A stretch of 44,579 nt of DNA from an uncultured Candidatus Saccharibacteria bacterium (lineage in GTDB: Bacteria > Patescibacteriota > Minisyncoccia > Phycocordibacterales > Phycocordibacteraceae), in assembly GCA_964371445.1 (NCBI GenBank), contig CAYJLK010000006.1, positions 1 through 44,579 of the forward strand, in the 5' to 3' direction. The translations under genes were made by a program, and so were the position numbers. The notes under the pieces are model-generated. The model ran no database searches. It was not told the DNA's origin and worked only from the letters and a program-made list of their open reading frames with translations. Below are positions 7,719 through 44,579 of the stretch, in pieces (positions within the stretch are counted from its first letter, which is position 1; each line of letters starts with the position of its first letter).

Positions 7719-7725
7719 GAAACAT

Positions 7726-11908: not shown

Positions 11909-12121
11909 ATGGCAGAGAAAATAGAAGCAACCACTACAGTGGTAGCCACACCGAATGAGACTACCGTTGCAGTCCGCGTGCTCAATACATTTGTCGATAC
12001 CGTTATGGAGGACACTGATCTTGTGACTGTAGGGGCGCGTCTCAAGACAGCTATCATTGACCGTAACGATCTTTCCGAAGCGACGCTCCGGACGGCTATG
12101 TTCGGCGATAGCAATACATGA
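11909..12121 (+). CDS. 70-aa hypothetical protein, translationally coupled to the downstream ABC ATPase
   Basis: Sequence is MAEKIEATTTVVATPNETTVAVRVLNTFVDTVMEDTDLVTVGARLKTAIIDRNDLSEATLRTAMFGDSNT. An ATGA overlap at 12118-12121 joins it to the next ORF. No known motif. Confidence 0.5.
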   Translation: MAEKIEATTTVVATPNETTVAVRVLNTFVDTVMEDTDLVTVGARLKTAIIDRNDLSEATLRTAMFGDSNT

Positions 12122-14595
12122 TTAAAGTCGAACGGATCATCATTCAAGAGTTCCGAGGTATCCGAAATCTCACACTCGAGCTCGGAGGGAAAAACTTCGC
12201 TATATGTGGACCAAACGGGACAGGCAAAAGCGGTGTGGTCGATGCTCTTGAATTCGCCCTAACGGGAAGCATTTCTCGTCTAACAGGCAAAGGTCGTGGT
12301 GCATTGTCGGTTAAGACTCATGGGCCACATGTTGATAGTCGAGGTACCCCGGAGCGAGCACAGGTAACTTTAGATGTCGTTATACCTTCGCTCGACAACA
12401 AGAGTGTCCGTATCGTACGCAACGTTAAAACTCCTAATGCTCCCACCATCACGCCCAGCGACCCCAGTGTTAGAGCGGCCCTACTTCATGTTGAGGAACA
12501 CCCAGAGTTTGTCCTTTCGCGTCGTGAAATAATTAAGTATGTACTTGCAGAACCAGGCGAGCGCTCCAAGGAACTCCAAGCACTCCTACGGCTCGATGAA
12601 CTTGAGACGGTTCGAACCGTGCTTCAGAAGATAGCGAATGCATCTGAAAAGGAACTCAAACCGCTTGAGCAAGCGAACACTTCAGCCGTAGAAGCTCTTA
12701 CTCGGGCGTTGGGTATTACTGAAGCGACACAAGAAAGTGTATTGACCGCTGTGAATGAGAAGAGAGCTGTGCTTTCACTGCCAGCCCTCACGAAACTTGA
12801 TCCCGCCACATCCATTCGTGACGGACTCGAAAGTCTCCCCGGCGCCGCACCGTCCCGAGTACCAAAGGTACAGGCCAAGGCTGACTTGGTCGCAGCCAGA
12901 GCAGCTCTAGATGTCCTGTTCTCACCTGCGTTTGAAAGAGAGAAGGGTCTGGTTGCTGACGCTGTATCGAAATTGAAAGGTAATGAAGAAAACCTGAAAA
13001 AAGTGTCTCAAGACGATTTGCTACGTGCTGCGCTCGAACTTTTTAATGAGAAGACATGTCCTGTATGCGAAACGGAATGGGATCCGGAGTCCTTCAGAGC
13101 AATCGTAACCGCGCAGCGAGCAAGACTCGATGCTGCGACGAAAGAACGAGCCGCTGTTGAATCACTCATCGCACCTATTATCACCAAGATTGGAAACGTA
13201 CGCGCGGCTCTAAACGTACTCATGCCCTACGGTCCGCTTTTCCTCGCGCCAGTGGATGTCACACAGATAGAAAAATACTGCAATCAGCTCTCAGTGAGGA
13301 TTACACAACTACGGAAGTTCCTACCGCTTGACGAGACTCTCGCGTCCTTGAACATCGGTAGCGAAGAGTCCGGACAAGTTTCATCCGTGCTTGATAATAT
13401 CGGCGTGGCTATAGAAGCAATCCCGGACCCCACTGACCGCGATGGTGCCCGTGAGTATCTCGTCCTTGGGCAGGAACGTTTGCAGGCATACAGAATAGCA
13501 GCGGCACGGTATAAGGTGGCAAAGAAACAGGTAGCCGTATCAAAACGAGTGTTCGAGATTTATGGCGTGGCCACAACCACTGCACTCGACGCAATTTACA
13601 AGCAGGTAGAAGCGGAGTTTCGCGGGTACTATCGTTTAATCAACAGCGACGACGAAAGCACGTTTGAAGCACAGCTCACCCCGTCTATAGGCAAACTTGG
13701 GTTCGAAGTGAACTTCTATGGCAGGGGGTTCTTCCCTCCGGGGGCTTACCACAGCGAAGGACATCAAGATGGCATGGGTCTTTGCTTATACCTAGCCCTC
13801 ATGAAGCATCTCCTCGGAAAGGACGGATTTACATTCGCTGTACTCGACGATGTTCTCATGTCCGTCGACAAAGGACACCGCCGTGAAGTATGTAAACTTC
13901 TTCTGTCCGTTTTCCCAAATACACAGTTTGTTCTCACCACACATGACGGTGTGTGGTTGCGTTATATGAAAACGACGGGGCTCATTGAATCGCAAGCCGG
14001 GATAGAATTTCGTAAATGGAACGTCGATTGCGGACCCTCAGAATGGAGGACCGTGGATACCTGGTCTGAAATAGATGACCTTGTCTCAAAGAACGATGTG
14101 CGTGGAGCGGCCGCGTTGCTTCGGAATCAACTTGAACACCTTGCAGCGGAGTACTGCGCCCTCCTTGGGGGGCGCGTCACCTATCAGGGTGATGGCCACT
14201 ACGAGCTTGGTGATCTCCTGCCGGGCGCTGTGGGTGCACTAGGAGCTCTATTTAAGAAAGCAAAGGCAGCAGCAAATAGCTGGGGCAACACAGAACTTGT
14301 CGCTGTAATCGATGAACAAGACAAGGCGTTCGCGACATCGGTAACGGCTGCTCTAGGTGAGCAGTGGCAGATTAACCCGCTCATTCACTACAACGAATGG
14401 GCAAATCTTGAACAGAATGATTTTACTCCCGTTGTAGCGGCATTCAAAGACCTAACGGCGCGCTTCGTCTGTGCAAAATGCAACGGGCTGATGTACATAA
14501 CCTATTCGAATGGGGTGAAGGACACCCTCCGTTGTAGCTGCTCCGCGCTTAGTCTTAGTTTGGTTCCAAAGAAAGCAGCGATAAAGCAAATCTGA
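12118..14595 (+). CDS. Rad50/SMC-like ABC ATPase with zinc-hook CxxC and extra C-terminal domain (RloC/PrrC-like candidate)
   Basis: Walker A is CGPNGTGKSG in the typical MIKVERIIIQEFRGIRNLTLEL N-terminus. A long helical insert carries CPVCETEW (13057-13068). The signature-like motif is SEGHQDG, Walker B/D-loop is FAVLDDVLMSVD and the H-loop is LTTHD. A further ~200-aa C-terminal domain contains LRNQLEHLAAEY (R-x3-E) and a terminal CAKCNG...CSCS zinc-ribbon-like motif. Confidence 0.85.
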   Translation: MIKVERIIIQEFRGIRNLTLELGGKNFAICGPNGTGKSGVVDALEFALTGSISRLTGKGRGALSVKTHGPHVDSRGTPERAQVTLDVVIPSLDNKSVRIVRNVKTPNAPTITPSDPSVRAALLHVEEHPEFVLSRREIIKYVLAEPGERSKELQALLRLDELETVRTVLQKIANASEKELKPLEQANTSAVEALTRALGITEATQESVLTAVNEKRAVLSLPALTKLDPATSIRDGLESLPGAAPSRVPKVQAKADLVAARAALDVLFSPAFEREKGLVADAVSKLKGNEENLKKVSQDDLLRAALELFNEKTCPVCETEWDPESFRAIVTAQRARLDAATKERAAVESLIAPIITKIGNVRAALNVLMPYGPLFLAPVDVTQIEKYCNQLSVRITQLRKFLPLDETLASLNIGSEESGQVSSVLDNIGVAIEAIPDPTDRDGAREYLVLGQERLQAYRIAAARYKVAKKQVAVSKRVFEIYGVATTTALDAIYKQVEAEFRGYYRLINSDDESTFEAQLTPSIGKLGFEVNFYGRGFFPPGAYHSEGHQDGMGLCLYLALMKHLLGKDGFTFAVLDDVLMSVDKGHRREVCKLLLSVFPNTQFVLTTHDGVWLRYMKTTGLIESQAGIEFRKWNVDCGPSEWRTVDTWSEIDDLVSKNDVRGAAALLRNQLEHLAAEYCALLGGRVTYQGDGHYELGDLLPGAVGALGALFKKAKAAANSWGNTELVAVIDEQDKAFATSVTAALGEQWQINPLIHYNEWANLEQNDFTPVVAAFKDLTARFVCAKCNGLMYITYSNGVKDTLRCSCSALSLSLVPKKAAIKQI

Positions 14596-32435: not shown

Positions 32436-33050
32436 TTACTTTGGTTGCTGCGCACAAAGCTCCCGTATCGCTTCAATCGGATTACCGCTCTGCAGTTTCG
32501 CTGCGTCTAAGAGTTCCCAAGCACGTTTGAGACCGGGTAGCTCTCGCTCTTTGGCGAGAACGCGGTCAGTCTTTTCTTTTCCCCACAAGTAAAGCAGACC
32601 GGCTTCGGTGAATTTATTTATGATGAGGTGGTCCCGGGTGGCGAAGTCTTCGGTGCTAAATGCTTTCTGCACCGCGTCCCAAATCTTATCCGCGAGCGCG
32701 TCATTCTCCGGGAATAGGAAAAAGACATGGCAATACTCGTGGATGAGCGTAGCAAGCACGTCCTGATAGTCCGACTTTATGTGCACTGTGAGCGGGTCGG
32801 AGAATGGAGTAAACGTTCCTCTCGGGTGTACCACATACGCCGGAGTTTGATTCGGGAATTTAAATCCTAGCGAGGCATAGTACTCAAGCACTGCGGCCGC
32901 CTGTTCCCACTCTTTCTCGAGTTCCGCGCAGAAGGTGTACCCTTCGGTTATCTCTGCATCGGTCAGCATGACACCAGACGCAAGCGACAAGCTTGCATCA
33001 TATACGGGGACATATTTGAGCAGTATCTTTTGGGCGGATTTGGTTGCCAT
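32436..33050 (-). CDS. HExxH-motif protein (putative zinc metallopeptidase; candidate leader peptidase or immunity factor)
   Basis: 204-aa ORF with LIHEYCHVFF. It is the last gene of the YcaO arm and starts 11 nt past the hairpin tail. Confidence 0.65.
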   Translation of the reverse strand: MATKSAQKILLKYVPVYDASLSLASGVMLTDAEITEGYTFCAELEKEWEQAAAVLEYYASLGFKFPNQTPAYVVHPRGTFTPFSDPLTVHIKSDYQDVLATLIHEYCHVFFLFPENDALADKIWDAVQKAFSTEDFATRDHLIINKFTEAGLLYLWGKEKTDRVLAKERELPGLKRAWELLDAAKLQSGNPIEAIRELCAQQPK

Positions 33051-33060
33051 ATTGCGTTTA

Positions 33061-33105
33061 AGTATAAAAGAAAGGGGGCATCCTGTCGAAAGACAAGGAT
33101 GCCCC
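33061..33105 (-). terminator. Strong hairpin plus U-tract immediately after the micro-ORF (terminator/attenuator)
   Basis: On the minus strand: GGGGCATCCTTGTC-TTTC-GACAGGATGCCCC (one bulge) followed by CTTTCTTTTATACT. It begins 7 nt after the micro-ORF stop. Confidence 0.65.
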
Positions 33106-33111
33106 GCGCCG

Positions 33112-33201
33112 TTACCTCGAGCAACGGTTGCAGCTGGATTGGCAACGAGCTGCCGAAGCCACTTTCACCTTTGCGCGATACGGCTTTCTCTTGATGCGCA
33201 C
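33112..33201 (-). CDS. Candidate RiPP precursor peptide, 29 aa: MRIKRKPYRAKVKVASAARCQSSCNRCSR
   Basis: Not in the ORF track (too short). On the minus strand, the YcaO stop TAA is followed by CGCAGAAAGGAGGTGATCTAA and then GTG. This puts a consensus AAAGGAGGTGA Shine-Dalgarno with its GGAGG core 8 nt before the GTG at 33201. The C-terminal 10 residues hold 3 Cys and 3 Ser (4 Ser in the whole peptide). A hairpin follows. Confidence 0.55.
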   Translation of the reverse strand: MRIKRKPYRAKVKVASAARCQSSCNRCSR

Positions 33202-33222
33202 TTAGATCACCTCCTTTCTGCG

Positions 33223-35445
33223 TTATGCAACGAAATGTGGAACGGCGGGATAGTCTCTCTCCCACCGCAAACCTAGCACTCCTAACCGTGGGTGTCCATA
33301 TGCCTCCGTGGCGTAACCGAAGTTTATCGGAAGCAGGTCCGGGGCGATTGCCCGTATGACATGCAAACCGATATTCGGTCGAGCTGGAGTCATATCAACA
33401 ATCCAGGGATTAACACGGTGTACAGCTTGTGTCACTGACATAACTACTTTTGGTAGCGTAGTCAGTCGTTCAGAGTCAAGGAGCCATTCGACGTGATGCC
33501 TGTATGCCGGATCCGCATACAGCGCTCCATGATCATCAACCGTACCAACGGCTTCAGGCTTGATTCCGCAAGGGTCTCGTTTTGACCACGTGAGCGCCAT
33601 GAGTTCGGCCTCCGCAAAGGCTTTTCTCAAGGCAATCTCGTAGGTTTCGGCCGCCGCCGATCCGGATGACAACGCGGGTTTTTTCCGCATTGAATGGATC
33701 AGAACCACAACGACCGGTACCGTATCGGTCGAGATATCCAATACTGATACTTGATATCCCGCCGATTGCCAGAACCGTAGTCTGTTTCCAATGACTTGGG
33801 TGAGGTACTCGTCCGGAATTGCTCTGACCACCCTCTTCCCGTACCACGTCGTCATCAGAGCATCTCGCTCGATTAGTTCCAGCGTTGCGGACTGCACAGC
33901 GGTTTCCTTGCTCGAATGCACGGCGACCCCGTTTGAACTCGCCCAGATACAAGGTAGTCGCGAGAGTCGGTGCTGAATACCGCGTTGATAATAAACCGCA
34001 TCGACCGGAATATTCATCGAGCTGCCGTCGACGTGTTTTTTGCCCACCACCCATTGCCAATTTACGTCCGGATCGAAGACGGAAAGTTCATGTTGGAACA
34101 TGACTTGCTGCCCCTTCATGATTGGATAGATGTCATACGGATTCAGCCACTCATCATTCCGAATACTCACTGCCTTTTTCACGTTCCATGAAGCATAGAA
34201 CATGCTGTCTGGTACGTATCGTTCCCACGCCTCAGCAAGTACTTTGAGATGCGCTTCTTCCCTCGACGTGCCTGTGGAAAAGGCGTTGCCAGTCCATTTC
34301 CGCTCTTCCTTCCTTTTTGTCGACACGACATATTGCGCCGAACCGACGTAGGGGGGGAAGTGGTAGCTACCCCTACCAATCTTGTCGACAGTTACGTTTC
34401 GGACGGGACCATGCGGAGCAAGAAGATATTTCTGCAAATGAGCGAGTGCGACTCCTTTCGGAGCCGGCGCTGCTTTCTTTGCGGGGATTCCAGCTATGAT
34501 CGCAGTTAGGACCGCTTGCTTCGGGTAGGATAGTTGGAGGAACTTGGCAAGTACTCTGTCATTGTAACCGCCGTACTCGACAACCCCAATGCCTTGCTCG
34601 GCACTGAACACATAGGCGTTTTGAGCCATATGTCCAGCTTCGATCAACAGATGCCGATAGCTCCGATTCGAATACTTCTTCGCCGCACGTAGCATATCCG
34701 CCGCGACGAACACAACGAGCGAGCTGTTGAACAAGAGGTGGTCGTCTTCAAGAGCCGCTTGGAGCTCAACTTCGTCCAAATGATCCTGAATCTGTCCCAG
34801 CGTTCCATCATGTCTGCGGTACTCGTATATTCCTTTTCTCAAGGTCGCCGTCTCTTTCAAGACTGCAACCATGATACTCATTGGATACAGACCGCCTCCT
34901 GATGGCACGCTTCTTGATTCCGCTCGACCGTACATTGCTTCCAACAATCCCGATACCTGTCGGTCCGAAAATCCAGCCTGATCGAAATTCCGATCCGATT
35001 TCCTCTTCTTCAACAGTTCGAGGAAGGGCGATTCATTTCGTACAAGAGATATTGTTTTTGCGGCGGCATGCAGTTGAACGTCTTTGGTCTTGGCGAGATG
35101 CGCCAGCGAACGAGGACTGACTACGTGGGGGTAGACCATCGGATTAGCCGAGCCGAGATGGAATGCAGTGAAGATATTGCTGCTGTCTATCAAGACCCCG
35201 GCCCGCAGTAATCGGCTGATAATCCGCCGAACAAGTTTCGCAGCAACATCTCCCTGCAACATTTCCACGATTTCTTCAATGGAATCGTGTCCGGTGCAAC
35301 ACTTAAGTATTTTCAAGGTCGCACCGATGTTTCCTTGGAACTCGATAAGTTCACTTTCACCCAGGAAGGTTATGGCGTTCTTGCCGGACTGGTACCCGTA
35401 GAACCTTACTAACGGATGTTTCTCTGACATGATATTTTCTCCCAA
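33223..35445 (-). CDS. Fusion protein: RRE-like winged helix + SagB/ThcOx-type FMN dehydrogenase + YcaO cyclodehydratase
   Basis: Residues ~40-100 (IGATLKILKCCTGHDSIEEIVEMLQGDVAAKLVRRIISRLLRAGVLI) look PqqD/RRE-like. SagB hallmarks are KRKSDRNF, PSGGGLYP and YRHLLIEAGHMAQN. YcaO hallmarks are STGTSREEAHLKVLAEAWERY, SSNGVAVHSSKETAVQSATLELIERDALMTTWY and SGSAAAETYEIALRKAFAEAE. Confidence 0.9.
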   Translation of the reverse strand: MGENIMSEKHPLVRFYGYQSGKNAITFLGESELIEFQGNIGATLKILKCCTGHDSIEEIVEMLQGDVAAKLVRRIISRLLRAGVLIDSSNIFTAFHLGSANPMVYPHVVSPRSLAHLAKTKDVQLHAAAKTISLVRNESPFLELLKKRKSDRNFDQAGFSDRQVSGLLEAMYGRAESRSVPSGGGLYPMSIMVAVLKETATLRKGIYEYRRHDGTLGQIQDHLDEVELQAALEDDHLLFNSSLVVFVAADMLRAAKKYSNRSYRHLLIEAGHMAQNAYVFSAEQGIGVVEYGGYNDRVLAKFLQLSYPKQAVLTAIIAGIPAKKAAPAPKGVALAHLQKYLLAPHGPVRNVTVDKIGRGSYHFPPYVGSAQYVVSTKRKEERKWTGNAFSTGTSREEAHLKVLAEAWERYVPDSMFYASWNVKKAVSIRNDEWLNPYDIYPIMKGQQVMFQHELSVFDPDVNWQWVVGKKHVDGSSMNIPVDAVYYQRGIQHRLSRLPCIWASSNGVAVHSSKETAVQSATLELIERDALMTTWYGKRVVRAIPDEYLTQVIGNRLRFWQSAGYQVSVLDISTDTVPVVVVLIHSMRKKPALSSGSAAAETYEIALRKAFAEAELMALTWSKRDPCGIKPEAVGTVDDHGALYADPAYRHHVEWLLDSERLTTLPKVVMSVTQAVHRVNPWIVDMTPARPNIGLHVIRAIAPDLLPINFGYATEAYGHPRLGVLGLRWERDYPAVPHFVA

Positions 35446-35556
35446 GAAGAATGTTTCAAGGACAAATTTCTGAAAATCAGCGTAGCATAATTTTTTGAAT
35501 AATCAACCCGGCATAAAACTCAGGAATGGGCGCCTTGGTAGTACAATACAGGGACG

Positions 35557-36579
35557 ATGATGCCGCTTGATAGGAACGAGAGTTATTGGATGTTGGACGA
35601 CGAACTCCTGGCCGCAGTGCGCGCGCCGGGCGCGCGCGAGCTCTCTACCTATCCGGACTATGACGAGTTGAAGAGCGCACTTGCAACGTATGCAGGCGTT
35701 GCTCCCGAGAATATACTCGTCACCCCTGGCTCTGACGCGGCGATAGAGCATATCGCACGCGCGTATGCGGGGAGTGGTGGGGGAGTGATACTGCCGGTGC
35801 CGACCTTCTACGGTTACGAATCTATCCTCGAGCGCGTCGGTGCGCAGGTCATTCCCGTTACGTATGAAGAGCGGAATGGTCGTTTCGTGTTCCCGCTCGC
35901 ACGAACGCTCGAGGCGCTCGCGAGTGGCACGGCAAAGGCGCTCTTCCTCTGTCATCCGAACAATCCACTCGGTTGTCCGCTATCGAGCGAAGACATTTCG
36001 TCGCTCGTCGCGGCGGCGCGGGGAAGCGGGACGCTCATCGTCTCTGACGAAGCCTATTTCGAATTTTCGTCCGGTGCTTCATTCCTGCCGCATCTCGCCG
36101 AACTACCGAATCTCATCGTTCTCCGTTCGCTCTCAAAAGCGTTTGCGCTCTCGGGTGCACGTGTCGGGTACGCGATAGCCTCTGCGGATATCATACAAAA
36201 GGTGGGAAAGCTCATGCTCCCGTGGCCGGTCGCGCATATAAGCGTTGCCGCCGCGCTCGCTCTCATCTCGCGGGCAGACAAGGTAAAAGTACGGCGAGAA
36301 TCAGTCATTGTAGCGCGTGGACATTTCTTAGAGGCGCTCCGTGCGGTCTCTCACGTGACGGCGTATTCATCGGAGACTAATTTCATTCTGGTACGCGTTC
36401 CTGATGCCGCGCGAGTCCGCGACGCGCTTCTTGCACAGGGTATCCGCGTCGCACTCGGCTCATCGATGAGTCGATTCCCGGAGGCGAGAGCGCTCCTGCG
36501 GGACACTCTGCGTATCGCCATCCCCGCCCCAGAATCCGAGGTATCCTGTATCGAGTCGCTACGAAGGATATTGCATTAA
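35557..36579 (+). CDS. Class I/II PLP-dependent aminotransferase (HisC / CobD-decarboxylase-like)
   Basis: 340 aa. Contains ILVTPGSDAAIE, CHPNNPLG and SDEAYFEF, with the PLP-lysine motif RSLSKAFALSGARVGY. Confidence 0.85.
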   Translation: MMPLDRNESYWMLDDELLAAVRAPGARELSTYPDYDELKSALATYAGVAPENILVTPGSDAAIEHIARAYAGSGGGVILPVPTFYGYESILERVGAQVIPVTYEERNGRFVFPLARTLEALASGTAKALFLCHPNNPLGCPLSSEDISSLVAAARGSGTLIVSDEAYFEFSSGASFLPHLAELPNLIVLRSLSKAFALSGARVGYAIASADIIQKVGKLMLPWPVAHISVAAALALISRADKVKVRRESVIVARGHFLEALRAVSHVTAYSSETNFILVRVPDAARVRDALLAQGIRVALGSSMSRFPEARALLRDTLRIAIPAPESEVSCIESLRRILH

Positions 36580-36607
36580 TTACAGATATGTGTTATTATA
36601 AATTTCT

Positions 36608-38158
36608 ATGAGTCTGACAAAAACGGTGCTGAAGAAAAAGCCACTCATCGTCGTTGGCGGGAAATTTTCTTCGCCTGCGCACTTCTTTAATGCCCTGCGC
36701 GCGCGCAAGAGTGCGGATTGGTTCCGAGCGGAAAAGAATCATCTCCTCGCTCTTTTCAAACGCATATCGCTCGAAGTGCCGGCATACCGACATTTCCTTC
36801 GTGAGAGCGGTGTACGTCGCGATACCATCCGTACGAGAGAAGACCTTGCTTCGGTGCCCGCAGTGACCAAGAAGAATTATCTGCAGAAGCATCCGTCCAC
36901 GAGTCTGTTATGGCATGGCTCCATGCGTTCGCCACAGGTGCTCACGTCCACGTCCGGTTCGACCGGGAAGCCGACGTATTTCTCTCGTTCGCACGAGATT
37001 GACGAACATTCATCGTTTGTTCACGAACTCATTTTTCGCACGAGCTCGCTGAAGAAGGATAAATCCACACTCGTCATCGTCTGTTTCGGTATGGGTGTGT
37101 GGATCGGTGGGCTCATCACATACCAAGCCTTCGAGCTTATGGGTCGGCGCGGCTACCCGGTCTCCATCCTCACTCCCGGAATCAATAAGACCGAGATATT
37201 GAAGGCGCTGACCGATCTCGCGCCGCACTACGAGCAGATCATCCTCGCCGGCTATCCGCCGTTCCTGAAGGATGTTATCGACGAGGCGCTCGCACAGGGC
37301 ATCACGTTCGCCAAGCACCGCATGATGCTTCTCTTTGCCGCAGAGGCATTCACCGAGAATTTCCGCGACCATCTCGCTAAGAAAGTCGGGATTGAAAATC
37401 CACTCACCGATGCAGTAAATATCTACGGGAGCGCTGACATCGGTACGATGGCGTTCGAGACCCCGTTTTCCATACTCGCGCGCCGGCTCGCGATGAAAGA
37501 CAATAAACTTTTCGCCGACATATTCGGCAACATCACGAAGACGCCGACGTTCGCACAGTACATACCGGAGTTTGTTTCGTTTGAAGCGCCGAACGGCGAG
37601 ATACTCATATCCGGGGATAGCGCGCTTCCGCTCCTGCGCTACTCCATCGGAGATCATGGCGGGGTCTACACCTTCCGCGAGCTCGTGGAGCGATACAGGG
37701 TGCACGGTATCGACCTTATGAAAGAAGCGCAGGCTGCTGGAATCCGCAAGCATGTGTATGAATTGCCGTTCGTGTACGTCTTTGAACGCATTGACTTGGC
37801 GACGACACTCTATGGCCTCCAGGTGTACCCCGAGACGATTAAAGAGGTCTTGCTTAAGAAGCACTTCGTCGACCACCTGACAGGCAAGCTTACGCTCATC
37901 ACGAAATTCGACGACAATCAAGACCAGTATCTGGAAATCAATCTGGAGCAGAAACCGAAAAAGGAAGCGAGCAAGGCGTTCGCATCGGAACTGATTGCTG
38001 AAATCGTTAAGAGTTTGCGCGAGAAGAATTCTGAATTCCGAGAACTATCCAACTTCCTCGGGAAACGCGCAGAGCCGAAGCTCGTCTTCTGGCCGTATGA
38101 GGACTCGCTCTACTTCAAGCCGGGCATAAAGCAGTCGTGGGTAGTGCGGCAGTCGTAA
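36608..38158 (+). CDS. PaaK / coenzyme F390 synthetase-type adenylate-forming ligase
   Basis: 516 aa. The N-terminal VPAYRHFLRESGV...REDLASVPAVTKKNY is followed by the AMP motif TSTSGSTGKPTYF. Confidence 0.8.
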   Translation: MSLTKTVLKKKPLIVVGGKFSSPAHFFNALRARKSADWFRAEKNHLLALFKRISLEVPAYRHFLRESGVRRDTIRTREDLASVPAVTKKNYLQKHPSTSLLWHGSMRSPQVLTSTSGSTGKPTYFSRSHEIDEHSSFVHELIFRTSSLKKDKSTLVIVCFGMGVWIGGLITYQAFELMGRRGYPVSILTPGINKTEILKALTDLAPHYEQIILAGYPPFLKDVIDEALAQGITFAKHRMMLLFAAEAFTENFRDHLAKKVGIENPLTDAVNIYGSADIGTMAFETPFSILARRLAMKDNKLFADIFGNITKTPTFAQYIPEFVSFEAPNGEILISGDSALPLLRYSIGDHGGVYTFRELVERYRVHGIDLMKEAQAAGIRKHVYELPFVYVFERIDLATTLYGLQVYPETIKEVLLKKHFVDHLTGKLTLITKFDDNQDQYLEINLEQKPKKEASKAFASELIAEIVKSLREKNSEFRELSNFLGKRAEPKLVFWPYEDSLYFKPGIKQSWVVRQS

Positions 38159-38183
38159 ACGGGGTGCGTGGTAGGATGAGGGG

Positions 38184-39305
38184 ATGAAACCGGAACAACT
38201 CGATCGTTCACGAGAGTCTTTTTCTGTATTTCGCGACCGTCTGCAGCCGTCGAAGGTCATTGACCGCTACGATCTTCTTTTAGAAGATCTTTTTCTCATC
38301 CGTAACCCGCGTTTTAAATTCATCAAGGACCATACGAGCGAGGTGCGGGCGTTCACCGAGGAGTACCGAGCCGACAAGCCGCTTGAAGACGTGGGGGAGT
38401 GGTTCTATTTCCCGTGGAACACGACGCTCGTGCACTATCTGCCGCACGAGGAGCATCAGGAGATACGTACCGCGCGCAATCGCAATATCATCACGAAAGA
38501 GGAACAGGAAAAATTGTACGGTCTCACGGTCGCCTATGCGGGACTCTCGGTCGGCAGCCACGGCGCGCTCACCTTTGCGCTCATGGGCGGGGCACGGCGT
38601 ATCAAGATCGCTGATCCCGATGAAGTCTCGCCCTCGAACCTGAACCGCATCCGCTTCGACTTCCTCGCCCTCGGGCGCAAGAAGACTGATCTCGTGCGCG
38701 AATATGTCTATCAACTGAATCCTTATGCCGAGATTGAGACGTTTGATACCGGCGTCACCGACGAGAACATGGACGCCTTCCTTTCTGGCGTAGATGTCCT
38801 CGTTGAAGAGACCGACAATTTGGAAATAAAAATACGGCTCCGGCTCGCGGCGCGCGAGCGCAGCATCCCCGTCGTTATGGCAACCGACAACGGCGACAAC
38901 ATTATCGTCGAAGTAGAGCGCTTCGATACCGACAAAACAAAACAGCTTTTCAACGGCGTTATCGGTGACGTGAGCGTGGAGATGTTCAAGTCCTTCACCC
39001 CCTCCGACTTGCCCAAGCTCGCGACAAAGATTGCTGGTCCGCACCTCGTTACCGAGCGCATGATGAGTTCGCTCCTTCAAGTCGGGCGCGAGATCTACTC
39101 GTGGCCGCAGCTCGGCGACGCCGCGACACTCTCGGGCGTCGCAATCGCCTATATCTTGAAGCGACTTGCGCTCGGACAGGCGGTGAATGAAGAGAAATGC
39201 GAGATTAGCCTGGACGCGCTCATTGATCCAGAGCATCATGCACCGCACGTGAAAGAGGCTCGGGAGACGGCACGGGCAGAATTCTTGGCGACGCTCGGTC
39301 TCTAG
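38184..39305 (+). CDS. ThiF/E1-like adenylyltransferase-family protein
   Basis: 373 aa. Nucleotide loop VAYAGLSVGSHGA, IKIADPDEVSPSNLNRI and LVEETDNLEIK. A ~110-aa N-terminal extension is present. Confidence 0.85.
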   Translation: MKPEQLDRSRESFSVFRDRLQPSKVIDRYDLLLEDLFLIRNPRFKFIKDHTSEVRAFTEEYRADKPLEDVGEWFYFPWNTTLVHYLPHEEHQEIRTARNRNIITKEEQEKLYGLTVAYAGLSVGSHGALTFALMGGARRIKIADPDEVSPSNLNRIRFDFLALGRKKTDLVREYVYQLNPYAEIETFDTGVTDENMDAFLSGVDVLVEETDNLEIKIRLRLAARERSIPVVMATDNGDNIIVEVERFDTDKTKQLFNGVIGDVSVEMFKSFTPSDLPKLATKIAGPHLVTERMMSSLLQVGREIYSWPQLGDAATLSGVAIAYILKRLALGQAVNEEKCEISLDALIDPEHHAPHVKEARETARAEFLATLGL

Positions 39306-39307
39306 CT

Positions 39308-40378
39308 ATGGATGGAGCGGAGAGAGAAAAGATAACGAAGATACTCACGGCTGCGGCTGCGGCTCCCTCAGGTGATAATTCTCAGCCGTGGCGTTTTGTC
39401 GTCAAAGGGAGAACAATAGAATTCCACTACATCCCTGAAAGAGACCACCCCATCTTGAACTACGAGGAGGGCGGTACTCTGATCGCGCTTGGCGCCGCGA
39501 TACAGAACGCTGAGCTTGAAGCGCGCGCTGAGCGGTATGCGCCGCAGACGGAGTATCGCGAGAGTGGCTCGTGTGTCGCCGTGATGACCCTCAATGAGGG
39601 CGGTAGCCTGGACGAAGATTCCGCCTCACTCCAAAGAGCGATACGAGCACGGCACTCCAACAGAAAAGCGTACACGAAGGCTCCACTCTCGCCGGAAGTA
39701 CGATTAGCGCTCTTGAGCGCGTCTCAGGAGGAGGATACGGGTCTGAAACTGTCACTGGTGGAATCAATCGACACGATGCGGATACTCTCGCGCGCGCTCA
39801 CGACCATGGAAGAAACGGCGCTTGGGAATAAAAATCTCCACGAATTCTTTTTCAGCGAGATACTCTGGTCTGCTGAAGAGAATCGCGCAGGGAAACAGGG
39901 GCTCTACCTCAAGACGCTCGAGCTCCCGCCGCCGGCACAAGCGATGTTCCGGCTCCTGAAGCGTTGGGGTTTTGCGAGGCCCTTAGCCGCGATTGGTTTC
40001 CCGAAGATGGTGGCGCAGACAAATGCGAAGCAGAACGCATCGGCATCGGCATTCGGCGTCATCACCGCAAAGTGGTCGCGGCGCGCTACCTACCTTGATG
40101 TAGGGAAGATGATGGAACGTCTATGGCTTCGTGCTACCGCACAGGGATTATCGATGCAGATCGTGACCGGCATTACCTTCCTCGCACGTTCGCTCCAGAC
40201 GCCTGAGGTAGCGCGACTCTTCAGTCCACAAGAACAAGAGAGGATTATCGCCGCACATGCGATAATAAAAAAGAATGTGGATGATACGCGCGAACCAATA
40301 CTCATATTCCGTATCGGCACGGGTGAGAGTCCGACGGAGGTAAGTTATCGTCGTCCGCCTGAAATCGTCTTCAACTAA
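39308..40378 (+). CDS. Tandem nitroreductase-fold protein (Acg-like architecture)
   Basis: 356 aa. Contains ILTAAAAAPSGDNSQPWRF and RARHSNRKAY. The start lies 2 nt after the ThiF-like stop. Confidence 0.85.
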   Translation: MDGAEREKITKILTAAAAAPSGDNSQPWRFVVKGRTIEFHYIPERDHPILNYEEGGTLIALGAAIQNAELEARAERYAPQTEYRESGSCVAVMTLNEGGSLDEDSASLQRAIRARHSNRKAYTKAPLSPEVRLALLSASQEEDTGLKLSLVESIDTMRILSRALTTMEETALGNKNLHEFFFSEILWSAEENRAGKQGLYLKTLELPPPAQAMFRLLKRWGFARPLAAIGFPKMVAQTNAKQNASASAFGVITAKWSRRATYLDVGKMMERLWLRATAQGLSMQIVTGITFLARSLQTPEVARLFSPQEQERIIAAHAIIKKNVDDTREPILIFRIGTGESPTEVSYRRPPEIVFN

Positions 40379-40380
40379 TC

Positions 40381-41955
40381 ATGCAAGCCTTTTCCAATCT
40401 CGACCTCCTCTCTGTCGGTGTCGCCGTTGCGGGTATCGGTTTGCTCGGTTTCGTTATCCTTTTCAATAACACCCGTTCGACGACGAATCGGTCTTTTTTC
40501 TATTTCACCCTGGTCACGGTCTGTTGGAGCATTCTCAATTATTCCTATTATCAGTTGCCGGCGGGCGATACCGCCCTGTGGCTCCTGCGGGGAGTCATGT
40601 GTTTTGCGACGTGGCATGCATTCACTTTTTTCCACCTGGCGTCTGTATTTCCAGAAGAGAATTACCGCCAGCCGCTCTCTCATACCTACGTGCTCATACC
40701 GATTGTCGGCGCAGTGTCGCTCCTGACGCTGACGCCGTATGTGTTTGAACGGATAAATGTGATTGGCGCCGGCGGGGCTATCGGTGGGGTAGAGAACGGC
40801 TCTGCTATCCCCGTGTTCGGGATGCTGGTGTTCTTCCTTATCATTTCGGGTATTTGGAAATTAATACGTAAGACGATGAAAGCGTCGAGAGAGCAACGGC
40901 GTCCGTATTCGCTGATGCTCTCTGGAATGATACTGACGTTTGTATTGCTCCTCACCTTCAACTTCTTCATCCCAGCAGTGTTCAATAATCCTCGCTTCAT
41001 ACCGCTCGGAGCCGTCTTCCTGCTCCCGTTCGTCATCATGACGTCGTACGCTATTTATCGTCATCATCTTTTCAATCTGAAAGTCGCGACCACGGCGTTC
41101 CTTGGGTTCATGGTGACCGTCTTCACATTCGTAAATGTCCTGTATTCGACCGATACGAGCGGAGTGGTCATCAACATCACTGCGTTTCTTATCGTGCTTA
41201 TCGGGAGTATTCGTATCGTGCGGGACACGCTCAATCTCAAGAAACTTACGGAAGAGCTTCAGGCGACCAATGAGCGGCAGGAAGGACTCATCCACTTCAT
41301 CGGGCACGAAGTGAAGGGATTCCTGACCAAGGCGGAAGGCGCATTCGCCTCGCTCTCTGAGGGCGACTTCGGGACATTGCCGAAAGAGCTGGAGCCGCTT
41401 GTTGAACACTCGCTTGTCGAGACGCGTCAGGGGTCGGCCTCGGTTGCGGCAATTCTGAAAGCGGCGAACCTGAAGAAGGGGACGGTCTCTTATACGAAGG
41501 CGCCGTTCGATCTGAAAGCGCTCGTCGCGGAGTCGGTCGAGAAAGAGAAGCTCGCGGCAGAGCAGAAAGGGCTCGCCCTCTCTTTCACTGCCGCCGACGC
41601 CTCGTACCAGATGACGGGCGACAAGGAGCAGATACTCGACCACGTGCTCCGCAATCTCATCCAGAACGCTATCAACTATACGCCGTCGGGCTCCGTCGTT
41701 ATCTCGTTACACAAAGAGAATGGGAAGATCATGTTTGCGGTAAAGGATTCCGGCATCGGCATCACTGACGAAGACAAGAAGCGGCTCTTCACCGAGGGTG
41801 GTCACGGCAAGGATTCGCAGCGGGTGAACGTCCACTCCACCGGCTACGGCCTCTACATCGCCAAAAGCATCGTCGAAGCGCACGGCGGTACCGTCCGTGC
41901 CGAGAGTGAGGGGGCGGGGAAGGGTGCAACATTCATCGTCGAATTCCCTGCGTAG
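40381..41955 (+). CDS. Membrane sensor histidine kinase (multi-TM N-terminus, HisKA + HATPase_c), no cognate response regulator in window
   Basis: Six to seven TM helices over aa 1-265. The H-box is FIGHEVKGFL, the N-box is LIQNAINYT, G1 is KDSGIGI and G2 is GYGLYIAKSIVEAHGG. Confidence 0.9.
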   Translation: MQAFSNLDLLSVGVAVAGIGLLGFVILFNNTRSTTNRSFFYFTLVTVCWSILNYSYYQLPAGDTALWLLRGVMCFATWHAFTFFHLASVFPEENYRQPLSHTYVLIPIVGAVSLLTLTPYVFERINVIGAGGAIGGVENGSAIPVFGMLVFFLIISGIWKLIRKTMKASREQRRPYSLMLSGMILTFVLLLTFNFFIPAVFNNPRFIPLGAVFLLPFVIMTSYAIYRHHLFNLKVATTAFLGFMVTVFTFVNVLYSTDTSGVVINITAFLIVLIGSIRIVRDTLNLKKLTEELQATNERQEGLIHFIGHEVKGFLTKAEGAFASLSEGDFGTLPKELEPLVEHSLVETRQGSASVAAILKAANLKKGTVSYTKAPFDLKALVAESVEKEKLAAEQKGLALSFTAADASYQMTGDKEQILDHVLRNLIQNAINYTPSGSVVISLHKENGKIMFAVKDSGIGITDEDKKRLFTEGGHGKDSQRVNVHSTGYGLYIAKSIVEAHGGTVRAESEGAGKGATFIVEFPA

Positions 41956-41984
41956 TTTCTCGAGTAGAGTGATATTATAATTAC

Positions 41985-43769
41985 ATGCATGTAGAAAAGA
42001 AAAAGCCGGCGCGCGTCGGGGCAGTGCTCCGCGCGTATAGCTCTGCCGCGTCTGCCTATCCGCGTCTCTTCAGTGCGGTCGTTCTCTCGACGATGACTAT
42101 CGTGGCGGGCGAGATTGCCGCGCCGCTCTATTTGAGGAAGTTCGTCGACGTGCTTGCCGGCGGTACTGCCGTGCCGCATGTCCTTACTACCATCGCCTGG
42201 ATACTGGGGGCATATGCGCTCGTCAATCTCGTCGCGTGGACGGGTCAGCGAGTGCGCATGGTGACCATCGGGCGACTTGAGGCACGCACGATGGCCGATC
42301 TCTACGACAAGGCGTTTACCTATCTTCTCGGGCATGCGCACGAATTTTTCATTTCCAATTTCACCGGCACCTTAACGCGCCGCGTGACGCGCTATGCGCG
42401 TTCCTTCGAATCGGTGTTCGACAACCTCATCATGAATCTCTTCCCGGCGCTCCTCTTTCTCGTCGGCGTGGTGGTGGTCTTGTCGCTTCGCAATATCTGG
42501 CTCGGCGCGGGGTTATTCGTCCTGACTGTTCTCTTTATTTATCTGCAATACCGGATGGTGATGTGGCTCCAGCCGCTACGGACCCGCCGTACTGAAGAAG
42601 ACAGTCGTATGACTGGCGCGCTTTCTGATGCAGTATTGAACCACTCGACGATCACCTCCTTTGCGGCATTGCCGTATGAACGTTCCTACTTCAGCAAAGT
42701 GACGGACGGATGGCGCACCGCGACCCAGAGAGCGATGGATGCCTATGCGTTTATCTATGGCATCCAGGGCGCGTTCGCTCTCTTTATCGAGATTGCCATT
42801 CTCGGCGGGACCGCCTTTCTCTGGACGAAAGGTCTTCTCACTATTGGCGATTTCGTATTGGTGCAAATCTACATCATTGGTCTCTTAAATCAGGTCTGGG
42901 GTATCGGCCGCAATATGCGCCAACTGCACGACTCCTTCACCGAAGCGACCGAGATGCTCGACATTATGGAACTGCCGCATGAGGTGCAGGACGTTGCTGG
43001 CGCGAAACCGCTCTCGGTGCCAAATGGCGCCATTGCCTTTGACCGCGTGCGCTTCGAATATCAGGGTACGCACACCGTACTAGACGGCTTCGACCTTCGT
43101 GTACTGCCGCATGAAAAGATTGCGCTCATTGGCTCGTCGGGGGCGGGGAAGACGACGCTCGCCAAGCTTCTCCTGCGTCTCTACGACGTGAACGGCGGCG
43201 CGATACGCATCGACGGGAAAGATATCGCGCGAGTAACGCAGGAGAGCTTACGGAAGGCGATAGCCTTTGTCCCGCAGGAGCCGATGCTCTTCCACCGCAC
43301 GCTTATGGAGAATATCCGCTACGGCAGGCAGGGAGCTACCGACGACGAGGTCATTGAGGCGGCTCGTCAGGCGCACTGCCACGAGTTTATTGCGCAGTAC
43401 CCGGAAGGGTACGGGACGCTCGTCGGCGAACGTGGCGTGAAGCTCTCGGGTGGCGAGCGCCAGCGAGTCGCTATCGCGCGCGCTATCCTCAAGGATGCAC
43501 CCATCCTTGTGCTCGACGAGGCGACCTCAAGTCTCGACTCAGAGTCGGAACGCCTTATTCAGGAGGCGCTCCTGCGTTTGATGGAAGGGAAGACCGTTAT
43601 TGCTATAGCGCACCGACTCTCCACGGTGATGCACATGGACCGTCTTATTGTGCTTGAAAAGGGATCGGTCATCCTGTCGGGGACGCACAGCGAACTCCTT
43701 GAACAGGAGAGTAATCTCTATAAGAAGCTCTGGGAGATCCAGGCAGGTGGATTCATCAGGGCGGATTAG
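41985..43769 (+). CDS. ABC exporter, fused permease-ATPase (MsbA/type I exporter fold), no C39 peptidase domain
   Basis: 594 aa. Walker A is GSSGAGKTT, the signature is LSGGERQRVAIARA, Walker B is ILVLDEATS and the H-loop is IAHRLST. Confidence 0.95.
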   Translation: MHVEKKKPARVGAVLRAYSSAASAYPRLFSAVVLSTMTIVAGEIAAPLYLRKFVDVLAGGTAVPHVLTTIAWILGAYALVNLVAWTGQRVRMVTIGRLEARTMADLYDKAFTYLLGHAHEFFISNFTGTLTRRVTRYARSFESVFDNLIMNLFPALLFLVGVVVVLSLRNIWLGAGLFVLTVLFIYLQYRMVMWLQPLRTRRTEEDSRMTGALSDAVLNHSTITSFAALPYERSYFSKVTDGWRTATQRAMDAYAFIYGIQGAFALFIEIAILGGTAFLWTKGLLTIGDFVLVQIYIIGLLNQVWGIGRNMRQLHDSFTEATEMLDIMELPHEVQDVAGAKPLSVPNGAIAFDRVRFEYQGTHTVLDGFDLRVLPHEKIALIGSSGAGKTTLAKLLLRLYDVNGGAIRIDGKDIARVTQESLRKAIAFVPQEPMLFHRTLMENIRYGRQGATDDEVIEAARQAHCHEFIAQYPEGYGTLVGERGVKLSGGERQRVAIARAILKDAPILVLDEATSSLDSESERLIQEALLRLMEGKTVIAIAHRLSTVMHMDRLIVLEKGSVILSGTHSELLEQESNLYKKLWEIQAGGFIRAD

Positions 43770-43780
43770 CTTTTCAAATG

Positions 43781-43854
43781 CGCGAGGGACGGGACTTGAA
43801 CCCGCAACCTCCGCCGTGACAGGGCGGCGCTCTAACCAGTTGAGCTACCCCCGC
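43781..43854 (-). tRNA. tRNA-Asp (anticodon GUC)
   Basis: Reverse complement folds as GCGGGGG-TA-GCTC-AACTGGTTA-GAGC-G-CCGCC-CTGTCAC-GGCGG-AGGTT-GCGGG-TTCAAGT-CCCGT-CCCTCGC-G. It is a full cloverleaf with no encoded CCA. Confidence 0.9.
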
Positions 43855-43924
43855 ATTTGCTTGCTTACGCAAGTAATTTCCATCCTACCAAAATCCTCAG
43901 AATTTTGTTAGTGTTCAACGATAA

Positions 43925-43996
43925 GCCGGTGTAGTTCAAGAGTTAGAACGAGGGACTCATAAACCCTAGACGGTGGCGCGACTCCACCCGCCGGCA
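43925..43996 (+). tRNA. tRNA with CAU anticodon (Met or Ile2), atypical D- and T-loops
   Basis: Folds as GCCGGTG-TA-GTTC-AAGAGTTA-GAAC-G-AGGGA-CTCATAA-ACCCT-AGAC-GGTGG-CGCGACT-CCACC-CGCCGGC-A. All four stems pair, apart from an A31/A39 mismatch and one G-U pair. The T-loop is CGCGACT instead of TTCRANN, and the D-loop lacks GG. Confidence 0.65.
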
Positions 43997-44013
43997 CTAC
44001 AGAGAAAGCTTAT

Positions 44014-44367
44014 TTACGCCCGACCGTACCGGTCTTCGAGGCGGTGAATGTCGCTTTCGTCGAAGTCGCCAAAGGCAATTTCTAGAAACGCCGTTCCCTC
44101 CGGACCGCCGGTAATCCGGTGCTCCTCGCCCCGCGTACCGAAGACGGCGTCTCCTTCGTGCACTTCCATATCTTTTCCGTTTACGTGCACGATGCCGGAG
44201 CCCCTGATGATGCGCCAGAACTCGTCGCGGTGTTCGTGTGTCTGCAGGCTGATAGCCCCGCCAGCGTTTACGGTGACAATCTTCACCGTCGTCTTCTCGT
44301 TGAGCGTGAAGCGCTCAAAATCGCCCCACGGGCGAATCTCTTTTTCGTAATGTGCAAGACCTTCCAT
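44014..44367 (-). CDS. Cupin-domain protein (mannose-6-phosphate isomerase type II-like)
   Basis: Contains EIRPWGDFERF...SLQTHEHRDEFWRIIRGSG...GEEHRI, which are the cupin metal motifs. I prefer the ATG at 44367 (MEGLAHY...) over the TTG at 44385 used by the track. Confidence 0.8.
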   Translation of the reverse strand: MEGLAHYEKEIRPWGDFERFTLNEKTTVKIVTVNAGGAISLQTHEHRDEFWRIIRGSGIVHVNGKDMEVHEGDAVFGTRGEEHRITGGPEGTAFLEIAFGDFDESDIHRLEDRYGRA

Positions 44368-44389
44368 GAGGGAAGTATATATCAAAAAA

Positions 44390-44418
44390 TTGAAAGAATA
44401 GAGGAATTCGGCTAGTAT
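44390..44418 (+). promoter_or_regulatory. Near-consensus sigma70-type promoter upstream of tRNA-Thr
   Basis: TTGAAA (44390-44395), a 17-nt spacer, then TAGTAT (44413-44418). The tRNA starts ~85 nt downstream. Confidence 0.5.
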
Positions 44419-44505
44419 GCGGGGGTGCGGTAAGCCGAGATAAGTAAGCTTGTCTCGGCGGCATTCGGAGAAAATAAAAGAGGACTTTCATTTTGCCCCT
44501 CATTT

Positions 44506-44578
44506 GCCGAGATAGCTCAGTTGGTAGAGCACGTCCATGGTAAGGACGAGGTCGTCGGTTCAATCCCGACTCTCGGCT
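44506..44578 (+). tRNA. tRNA-Thr (anticodon GGU)
   Basis: Folds as GCCGAGA-TA-GCTC-AGTTGGTA-GAGC-A-CGTCC-ATGGTAA-GGACG-AGGTC-GTCGG-TTCAATC-CCGAC-TCTCGGC-T. This is a canonical cloverleaf. The window ends 1 nt later. Confidence 0.9.
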
Positions 44579-44579
44579 C

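Follow-up and report, generated by a model that had tools for sequence, protein, structure and literature searches.

A predicted azole-peptide cassette beside a probably independent oxazolone-synthetase-like gene module in an uncultured Saccharibacteria bacterium

The DNA analysed here, hereafter the window, is the whole of a 44,579-nucleotide (nt) stretch of contig CAYJLK010000006.1 (assembly GCA_964371445.1) from an uncultured Candidatus Saccharibacteria bacterium. Between positions 32436 and 43769 it carries a minus-strand arm of three genes, built around a fused YcaO enzyme, and a plus-strand arm of six genes. An earlier note, made from the letters alone, had read these nine genes as one system making a peptide that is ribosomally synthesized and then modified after translation (RiPP). 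The ORF table of the window contains all nine open reading frames (ORFs) with the coordinates, strands and spacings that had been reported. The features of the region are as follows.

33223..35430, minus strand: fusion protein with a RiPP recognition element (RRE)-like, a SagB and a YcaO domain; 735 aa (the mechanical ORF reaches TTG 35445, 740 aa)
33112..33201, minus strand: precursor peptide gene; 29 aa, GTG start
33064..33105, minus strand: hairpin with a T-run, separating the peptide gene from the HExxH gene
32436..33050, minus strand: HExxH protein (HEYCH), 204 aa; divergent DUF2268/YjaZ-like predicted Zn-peptidase
35557..36579, plus strand: HisC/CobD-like aminotransferase dependent on pyridoxal phosphate (Aminotran_1_2, 161 bits; hisC, 226 bits)
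36608..38158, plus strand: PaaK-like adenylate-forming ligase, 516 aa (TIGR02155, E 8.5e-18)
38184..39305, plus strand: ThiF-like adenylating enzyme (NF005901, 270 bits, N-terminal half)
39308..40378, plus strand: tandem-nitroreductase flavin-dependent oxidase of the Acg/TrzS C-terminal type (NF005901, 171 bits; Acg family, 135 bits)
40381..41955, plus strand: histidine kinase with seven transmembrane segments (7TM) (HisKA_7TM and HATPase_c)
41985..43769, plus strand: MsbA-type ATP-binding cassette (ABC) exporter (ABC_membrane and ABC_tran)

The arms are divergent and 111–126 nt apart (111 nt from TTG 35445 to ATG 35557), and the intergenic gaps of the plus arm measure 28, 25, 2, 2 and 29 nt. 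The 740-aa ORF described for the fusion exists, but its start is likely to be ATG 35430 rather than TTG 35445: the ATG has its own GGGAGAA upstream and is the one used by the gene calls of the source contigs, which give a protein of 735 aa. Profile searches bore out all six domain assignments made for the plus arm. The plus-arm module is conserved elsewhere without YcaO, and the minus-arm trio without the plus-arm enzymes, so the nine genes are not one unit; we are fairly confident that the region holds two independent neighbouring systems, an azole-peptide cassette and an oxazolone-synthetase-like module of ligase, ThiF protein, oxidase and kinase.

Judged by its sequence, the minus arm appears to be a genuine three-gene cassette of the type that makes linear azole-containing peptides or thiazole/oxazole-modified microcins (TOMMs), its product being a predicted azole peptide. 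Its central protein comprises an RRE-like winged-helix region (about aa 1–95 of the 735-aa form), a SagB domain (about aa 126–320) and a YcaO domain (about aa 385–735). Both catalytic domains noticed earlier were recovered by profiles: in the 740-aa ORF the SagB-type nitroreductase lies at aa 145–317 (TIGR03605, 96 bits, above the cut-off of 78) and YcaO at aa 391–704 (PF02624, 140 bits). The curated cut-off of the SagD family was not reached (TIGR03604, 147 bits versus 219), so the fusion represents a divergent subfamily. Its matches among PDB sequences are McbC, BmdC, CyaGox, TruD, LynD and MJ1094, entries 6gos_C, 4bs9 and 4v1t being among them. In a 51-sequence alignment of the family the Lys-Tyr motif of the dehydrogenase (K252-Y253) is invariant and PSGGGLYP is also conserved; in the YcaO domain E400/E403/R404, S499/G501 (SNG), E518/E521/R522/D523 and H732 are invariant, and the second ExxER motif lines up with its counterpart in TruD, LynD and MJ1094. 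We take E400/E403/R404 and E518/E521/R522/D523 to be the two ExxER helices that bind ATP and Mg in YcaO enzymes; the residues expected for this binding are thus intact in the window as they are throughout the alignment. The protein ends in YPAVPHFVA, which fits a family-wide P-x-x-P-H-F-x-A. We considered thioamide formation as another activity for the YcaO domain and rejected it, because no TfuA is present and the domain shares its polypeptide with an azoline dehydrogenase.

The N-terminal 95 aa, when searched as a profile against PDB sequences, matched the RRE regions of LynD, MusD and TruD best, followed by PqqD and PbtF, at equivalent positions and with marginal E-values (0.015–0.46); the Pfam PqqD model gave E 0.12. 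These profile matches are the part of the earlier RRE-like assignment that stands, and weakly so: they suggest a fused leader-recognition domain. A beta-beta-beta-alpha-alpha-alpha pattern in a low-confidence AlphaFold2 model is suggestive and is not relied on here. Profile searches of the window ORFs found no C or F leader-recognition protein; with a leader-binding domain of its own, the fusion would not require an E1-like partner.

One assembly of the same strain, at 4x coverage, has a 14-nt insertion in this gene (L074 3168–5389, equal to window 33223–35430) that splits it into ORFs of 523 aa and 210 aa. Four further assemblies are identical to the window over the fusion stretch and a fifth (L076) has one mismatch; the insertion is either a population variant or an assembly error.

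No more than three relatives came out of a word-indexed protein search with the fusion, on contigs L064, L065 and L066 (72%, 68% and 35% identity). In each of them a small ORF comes next after the fusion, and an HExxH or DUF2268 protein after that. An impression that the fusion is very rare came from a single-sequence genome scan, which yielded only distant relatives with separate SagB and YcaO genes, and it was overturned by two more sensitive searches. An exhaustive search of 1.84 billion representatives found 335 relatives at E <= 1e-30, of which the best 150 are mostly full-length (700–740 aa) and match residues 5–735 in one stretch. An alignment-based scan of species genomes found 48 loci with the fused gene, nearly all of them in Patescibacteria (Saccharibacteria, Paceibacteria, Yanofskybacteria, Kaiserbacteria and Nanosyncoccus), plus one cyanobacterium and one metagenome-assembled genome (MAG) of Pacearchaeota. 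The trio of fusion, small basic Cys/Ser-rich ORF and HExxH protein recurs in about 49 loci. No fusion was found in the viral contigs scanned, and there was no sign of a phage-borne cassette.

Two side observations concern members of this family. The cyanobacterium is the cultured Argonema antarcticum (L087), whose fusion-family gene is 31% identical to that of the window and has near it a small ORF with long GGS repeats that ends in CSGGNKSSR; it is a possible culturable entry to the RRE-SagB-YcaO family. In five loci (L082, L085, L101, L107 and L120) a radical-SAM/SPASM protein of about 380 aa is encoded within a few kb of the fusion and may be an extra tailoring enzyme in some members.

The ORF between the fusion and the HExxH gene encodes MRIKRKPYRAKVKVASAARCQSSCNRCSR, with a basic leader (MRIKRKPYRAKVKV...) in its N-terminal part and the core RCQSSCNRCSR. 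As reported earlier, this Cys/Ser-rich reading frame of 29 codons is preceded by a Shine-Dalgarno sequence, AGGAGGTGA at 33215–33207, 5 nt 5' of the GTG. The equivalent small ORFs are MRTKRKAYRAKANVMSAARCQSSCNRCSR in L064, MKIKRKPYRAKAKVVSANRCQSSCNRCSR in L065 and MKRKKKNGKVVVIVRPYKGKISTTCLRSGGACPGGGTCGS in L066. When the DNA of the window, L064 and L065 is aligned, the Shine-Dalgarno sequence is invariant and the start codons coincide. Synonymous and non-synonymous codon differences over the whole gene number 16:5 (window versus L064), 12:4 (window versus L065) and 11:6 (L064 versus L065), and in the core 6:0, 5:0 and 5:0, respectively. The ORF is under purifying selection. Since the core changes only synonymously and the ribosome-binding site and start are invariant, the ORF is evidently translated and its C-terminal part is the constrained product.

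Many distant fusion genes (25–38% identity) are likewise adjoined by a small ORF with a basic N-terminus and a C-terminus rich in Cys, Ser, Gly and Thr. At least 16 of these ORFs share a leader of alternating hydrophobic residues followed by (K/R/V/T)-P-(Y/R/H), as in VIVRPYKG, AVLKPYEA, VRIRPYKK and VSVKPRRA and in IKRKPYRA of the window. This description of the motif is qualitative, since a strict regular expression is incomplete: it brought up no more than about 14 convincing precursors, and the peptide of the window was not among them. Together with the selection on the peptide, these family-wide precursor-like ORFs uphold the earlier proposal that the YcaO arm is a RiPP cassette whose substrate is the micro-ORF.

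The strong hairpin that had been reported downstream of the peptide gene is also there (33105–33075, dG −24 kcal/mol, z = −4.6) and is followed by a T-run. Across three loci the corresponding values are −24 to −31 kcal/mol and z −3.3 to −4.9, with paired changes on both arms. The element has the look of a terminator or attenuator and shares part of its sequence with a promoter-like TCGACA-17-TATACT site for the HExxH gene. Hairpin and TATACT element are present upstream of the HExxH orthologue in L077 too, where the YcaO and peptide genes are missing.

The 204-aa protein encoded last in the minus arm has the expected HExxH motif, HEYCH. By itself it had no Pfam match in profile searches, and its AlphaFold2 model (predicted local distance difference test, pLDDT, 80) gave no significant fold match to the PDB with Foldseek. 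An hhalign comparison of window-type HExxH proteins with the DUF2268 proteins that flank other fusion genes aligned the two around the HExxH helix (probability 93.6%, E 2e-7), and one orthologue of the window protein is annotated YjaZ by its source. Neighbour clustering placed an HExxH protein directly next to the fusion in 39 of the 49 fusion loci, 32 being of the DUF2268 family and seven of the window type. The protein is a candidate leader peptidase. In L077 the HExxH gene directly faces the aminotransferase gene, and the YcaO and peptide pair behaves as an insertion/deletion unit.

From these genes, their motifs, the selection on the peptide and the family-wide co-occurrence we infer the following chemistry. 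The 29-aa peptide would be made from its strong ribosome-binding site, and the RRE-like domain at the N-terminus of the fusion would bind its basic leader around KRKPY. At the expense of ATP, the YcaO domain would convert the three Cys of RCQSSCNRCSR, and possibly some of its Ser, to azolines by cyclodehydration; the fused SagB domain would oxidize these to azoles with flavin mononucleotide (FMN). The DUF2268-like HExxH protein would then remove the leader, and the hairpin after the peptide gene may keep the peptide transcript in excess over that of the peptidase.

The nearest counterparts of this cassette are the azole-peptide clusters of the candidate phyla radiation (CPR), of which 110 have been described in 93 genomes, with YcaO, nitroreductase and peptidase as separate genes and an 84-aa precursor (PMC7298704). 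The window shares with them a YcaO protein, a nitroreductase-type dehydrogenase, a peptidase, an adjacent Cys/Ser-rich precursor and the same phylum-level group of hosts. It differs in having the predicted leader-binding domain, the dehydrogenase and YcaO in one polypeptide, in its divergent DUF2268-like peptidase and in the length of the precursor, 29 aa versus 84 aa. Microcin B17 synthetase (McbBCD) and the cyanobactin heterocyclases (LynD/TruD/PatD) have the YcaO ATP/Mg motifs and the SagB/McbC-type dehydrogenase with Lys-Tyr in common with the fusion, whose RRE-like N-terminus may correspond to their PqqD-like leader-recognition element. Unlike them, the fusion lacks an E1-like (C) domain and has the RRE-like domain before the dehydrogenase, so that the domain order is RRE-B-D (B and D being the dehydrogenase and YcaO activities) rather than C-D or separate B, C and D. 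The minus arm is best described as an azole-peptide cluster of the CPR kind in which RRE-like, dehydrogenase and YcaO domains are, unusually, fused.

The enzymes of the plus arm point to a different chemistry. The best match of the ThiF protein is the N-terminal half of NF005901, the Rv1355c family protein (270 bits, E 5e-80), and the next family scores 88 bits; the nitroreductase best matches the C-terminal half of the same model (171 bits, model positions 373–715), ahead of the Acg family at 135 bits. No TOMM C-protein or Ocin-ThiF (F-protein) model was among the profile matches of the ThiF protein, whose nearest solved relatives are ThiF, TcdA and MoeB. Across 68 homologues it keeps the Gly-rich nucleotide-binding loop, ADxD...NxNR and ExD211, in which D211 would be equivalent to D217 of TrzS; the FMN motifs of the oxidase, APSxxNxQPWxF and RxxxR, are conserved in 67–68 homologues. 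The earlier suggestion that the E1-like protein supplies the C activity of a TOMM synthetase and that the second nitroreductase is an additional stand-alone dehydrogenase is therefore not sustained: by homology, the two proteins appear to be the split halves of an Rv1355c/TrzS-type protein.

TrzS, as Rv1355c is also called, joins an ATP-dependent cyclase to an O2-dependent desaturase in one protein and produces N-acyl tryptazolones (PMC12856293). TyzB/TyzC of M. tuberculosis is a characterized pair of split ThiF and oxidase (PMC10404671), and OxzB of Pseudoalteromonas rubra is the founding member of the oxazolone-synthetase family (10.1101/2020.06.11.147165). The plus arm resembles OxzB, TrzS and TyzB plus TyzC in pairing a ThiF-like ATP-dependent cyclase with a tandem-nitroreductase flavin oxidase, and its division into two genes recalls TyzB/TyzC. 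All characterized oxazolone systems have an adjacent N-acyl-amino-acid synthase; the window has, in contrast, a PaaK-like ligase and an aminotransferase (or, elsewhere, an amino-acid dehydrogenase) and no N-acyltransferase of the OxzA/TyzA/TrzA type. Further differences are that a 7TM histidine kinase is co-inherited and that the hosts are Patescibacteria, not Proteobacteria or Actinomycetota. We found no literature linking oxazolone-type enzymes to Patescibacteria, which, coverage being incomplete, is weak evidence of absence.

The ligase has the conserved motifs TSGSTGxP, YGxA and RYxIGD. Like PaaK it shows adenylation motifs of the ANL type and a PaaK-type N-terminal domain, and its closest solved structures are the phenylacetate-CoA ligases 2y4o, 4r1l and 2y27 (E 1e-9 to 1e-11). 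Unlike PaaK, it is distant (64 bits with TIGR02155 against a cut-off of 646), about 80 aa longer and without paa catabolic genes nearby. The kinase keeps H309 and the N, G1 and G2 boxes conserved among module homologues and has a membrane-embedded 7TM sensor with no large periplasmic domain.

We scanned for the ligase side by an alignment-based search, which gave 80 Patescibacteria species loci with ligases 40–89% identical to that of the window. A ThiF gene lies near the ligase in 76 of these, the tandem nitroreductase near ligase or ThiF in 68 and the 7TM kinase in 67. The aminotransferase is found upstream of the ligase in 23 loci and is replaced by an ELFV-type amino-acid dehydrogenase in 11. 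The ABC exporter is near the ligase in only 12 loci (and near the fusion in four of 49), and one or two receiver-only (CheY-like) response regulators stand beside the module in 13 (e.g. L186 218–1033); there is none in the window. The four-gene module of ligase, ThiF, nitroreductase and 7TM kinase is present in 60–76 of the 80 loci (window 36608–41955, L067, L069, L070 and L162–L237). It occurs in two gene orders, ligase-ThiF-oxidase and ligase-oxidase-ThiF, and is often flanked by GrpE-DnaK-DnaJ and aminoacyl-tRNA synthetase genes. It is a Patescibacteria-wide, self-contained unit set among housekeeping genes, with the aminotransferase as an accessory first gene and the 7TM kinase as an integral member. 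The ABC exporter is a variable neighbour that is loosely attached to the module, and its assignment to either module is uncertain; L064 and L219 also have a kinase-ABC pair.

In L219 the aminotransferase, kinase and ABC exporter are 64–71% identical to those of the window and the ligase, ThiF protein and oxidase only 38–46%, a split that suggests cassette replacement. The ligase-ThiF junction also tolerates insertions. That of L077 (7103–10615) holds seven genes, for a peptidase S66, an Orn/DAP decarboxylase, methyltransferases, two DCD-domain (PF22769) proteins and an AlaX-like protein, and that of L067 (11551–13476) two, for proteins of 420 aa and 167 aa.

Homology, gene linkage and the conserved catalytic motifs suggest that the ThiF/oxidase pair would most likely cyclize and desaturate an N-acyl amino acid or a similar carboxylate to give an oxazolone-type small molecule. 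Since the window encodes no N-acyl-amino-acid synthase, the ligase is the sole candidate for making the acylated substrate; it may stand in for that synthase, fed by the aminotransferase or, in other loci, by the amino-acid dehydrogenase. The co-inherited 7TM kinase would suggest that the product of the module, or its precursor, is a signal.

The independence of the two arms can be followed from both sides. No YcaO fusion was found within 10 kb of the ligase in any of the 80 ligase loci, nor any HExxH protein near it, and the plus module is near the fusion in two of the 49 fusion loci. On contigs L064, L065 and L066 the trio has no aminotransferase, ligase, ThiF or nitroreductase gene with it, and 141 of the 143 YcaO-related loci fetched (63 + 80) have no ligase or ThiF match; L099 alone among those searched matched both. 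Genes of 384 aa and 311 aa upstream of the L066 YcaO gene were considered as ThiF and nitroreductase homologues and rejected, BLASTP detecting no similarity; the 311-aa fragment resembles the 7TM region of the kinase. In L067, whose ligase is 84% identical to that of the window, pyruvate phosphate dikinase (PPDK), saccharopine dehydrogenase and DoxX genes lie on one side and aminotransferase and ligase genes on the other, and the 4.1 kb in place of the YcaO arm encode ApbE-like, GNAT, CYTH, HisG-like and CYTH proteins and no YcaO, peptide or HExxH gene. The expectation that the arms, if unrelated, would never be syntenic elsewhere is thus largely borne out (L064, L065, L066, L067), but not strictly, as L099 has both; and the plus operon does occur beside unrelated genes as a self-contained unit, which counts against a single system. 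By a rough judgement, a rate of two in 49 could come about by chance where both modules are common and genomes measure about 1 Mb.

Several observations weigh against this interpretation in whole or in part. The two modules are adjacent in L099, a distant Paceibacterota MAG with a fusion 27% identical to that of the window, and in 11 of the 49 fusion loci, a raw count, a 7TM kinase belonging to the family of the window's own is encoded no more than 7 kb from the fusion. Orthologues of the window HExxH protein at 72–79% identity occur without any YcaO gene (L077–L081), which makes the peptidase role one assigned by association. The RRE assignment depends on marginal E-values, and the AlphaFold2 model of the fusion, built from a four-sequence alignment, reached a pLDDT of 39. 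Both NF005901 scores stay short of 476, the curated cut-off, a value fixed for the whole protein in its fused form. Profile searches of the window revealed no N-acyl-amino-acid synthase or acyltransferase, the position being occupied by a ligase that is only distantly PaaK-like; L099 has a GNAT gene in the acyltransferase position. The product of neither module has been observed.

The count of kinases near the fusion leaves room for the kinase as a shared hub and for some functional coupling. The enzymes would then be independent and the 7TM kinase, perhaps with the ABC exporter, would also serve the peptide cassette; in the manner of peptide-pheromone kinases, the kinase might for instance sense the mature peptide. 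We consider this unlikely, if worth keeping in view. Eight of the 11 loci lack the ligase/ThiF module (L064, L065, L066, L085, L089, L090, L113 and L127); the others are L099, the window and L107, which has no ligase or ThiF and a weak nitroreductase match. The raw proximity looks above chance. In L064 a kinase-ABC pair is found at a distance of 7 kb from the trio, and a sensor embedded in the membrane, with no large periplasmic part, would suit such a role. The main partner of the kinase is nevertheless the ligase/ThiF/oxidase set (67 of 80 loci), the window, L064 and L065 are related and may reflect a single event, and the window encodes no response regulator.

Less probable still is a hybrid RiPP pathway of all nine genes, in which ThiF would serve the YcaO domain as its TOMM C protein and the kinase and the ABC protein would see to regulation and export, with tailoring of the peptide left to the aminotransferase, the ligase and the second nitroreductase. 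The short divergent spacing, the tight packing of the plus arm and the adjacency of the modules in L099 would fit it, and ThiF-type enzymes often act on peptide C-termini (PMC12596934). It conflicts with the counts of zero in 80 and two in 49, with the flanks of L067 and the trios of L064 and L065, with the resemblance of ThiF to TrzS rather than to C-protein models and with the fusion's own putative leader-binding domain. Nor does L099 itself favour it: there the YcaO fusion is followed by DUF2268, the convergent precursor, GNAT, nitroreductase, ThiF, the ligase, a protein of 310 aa and the kinase, and the convergent precursor-like ORF (52 aa, …FSWKV…CGSGKCTKCK) between the modules implies separate transcription units.

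In a further reading the micro-ORF would be a chance ORF or a regulatory leader, and another protein would be the target of the fusion. This would accord with the unusual shortness of the ORF and with the hairpin and promoter-like element kept without it in L077, but is extremely improbable given the synonymous-only changes in the core (5–6 per pair), the invariant Shine-Dalgarno sequence and start and the equivalent ORFs beside fusions of 25–38% identity.

If the region holds two independent systems, as we favour, B-, C- and D-like domains lying side by side do not amount to one TOMM pathway, and a plausible misreading is corrected. The azole-peptide cassette is compact, with three genes in 3 kb and a 29-aa substrate, comes from ultra-small and mostly uncultured bacteria and is part of a family in which hundreds of fusions of RRE-like, dehydrogenase and YcaO domains would need no E1-like partner, which makes it a convenient minimal system for YcaO enzymology; it also lets one ask what role azole peptides play in episymbiotic bacteria. 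What bacterial oxazolones do physiologically is an open question (PMC12856293), for which the four-gene module offers a concrete hypothesis by tying oxazolone-synthetase homologues to a sensor kinase. More tentatively, and with rather more doubt than belief, we can picture the ligase-ThiF-oxidase-7TM kinase set as a phylum-wide autoinducer-type system: an oxazolone-like molecule would be made from amino-acid-derived acids by ATP-dependent ligation, as would suit hosts without fatty-acid synthesis, and sensed by the module's own membrane kinase, with azole-peptide cassettes settling near the same kinase.

The sequence of the window recurs on 23 metagenomic contigs from one study, the longest of 265 kb, and the closest species-level genomes are MAGs of Candidatus Paceibacterota and Kaiserbacteria (70–90% protein identity), which places the host in the Patescibacteria (CPR), with a Paceibacteria/Kaiserbacteria-like genome. 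The flanks are ordinary chromosomal genes (PPDK, glycerate kinase, saccharopine dehydrogenase, DoxX, LOG, enolase and others). Past the ABC exporter (window 43780–44579 and beyond; L071 17407–19460) come tRNA genes for Asp, Met and Thr, a cupin gene and a gene for a 516-aa large serine recombinase, a stretch that could be the edge of an integrated element. At 4743–10185 and 12118–14595 the window encodes a Type III restriction helicase of 991 aa and a DNA methylase of 819 aa, followed by an 825-aa SMC/AAA ATPase. The helicase/methylase stretch has a lower GC content (45–47%, versus 52–59% elsewhere) and, with the ATPase, may be a defence island.

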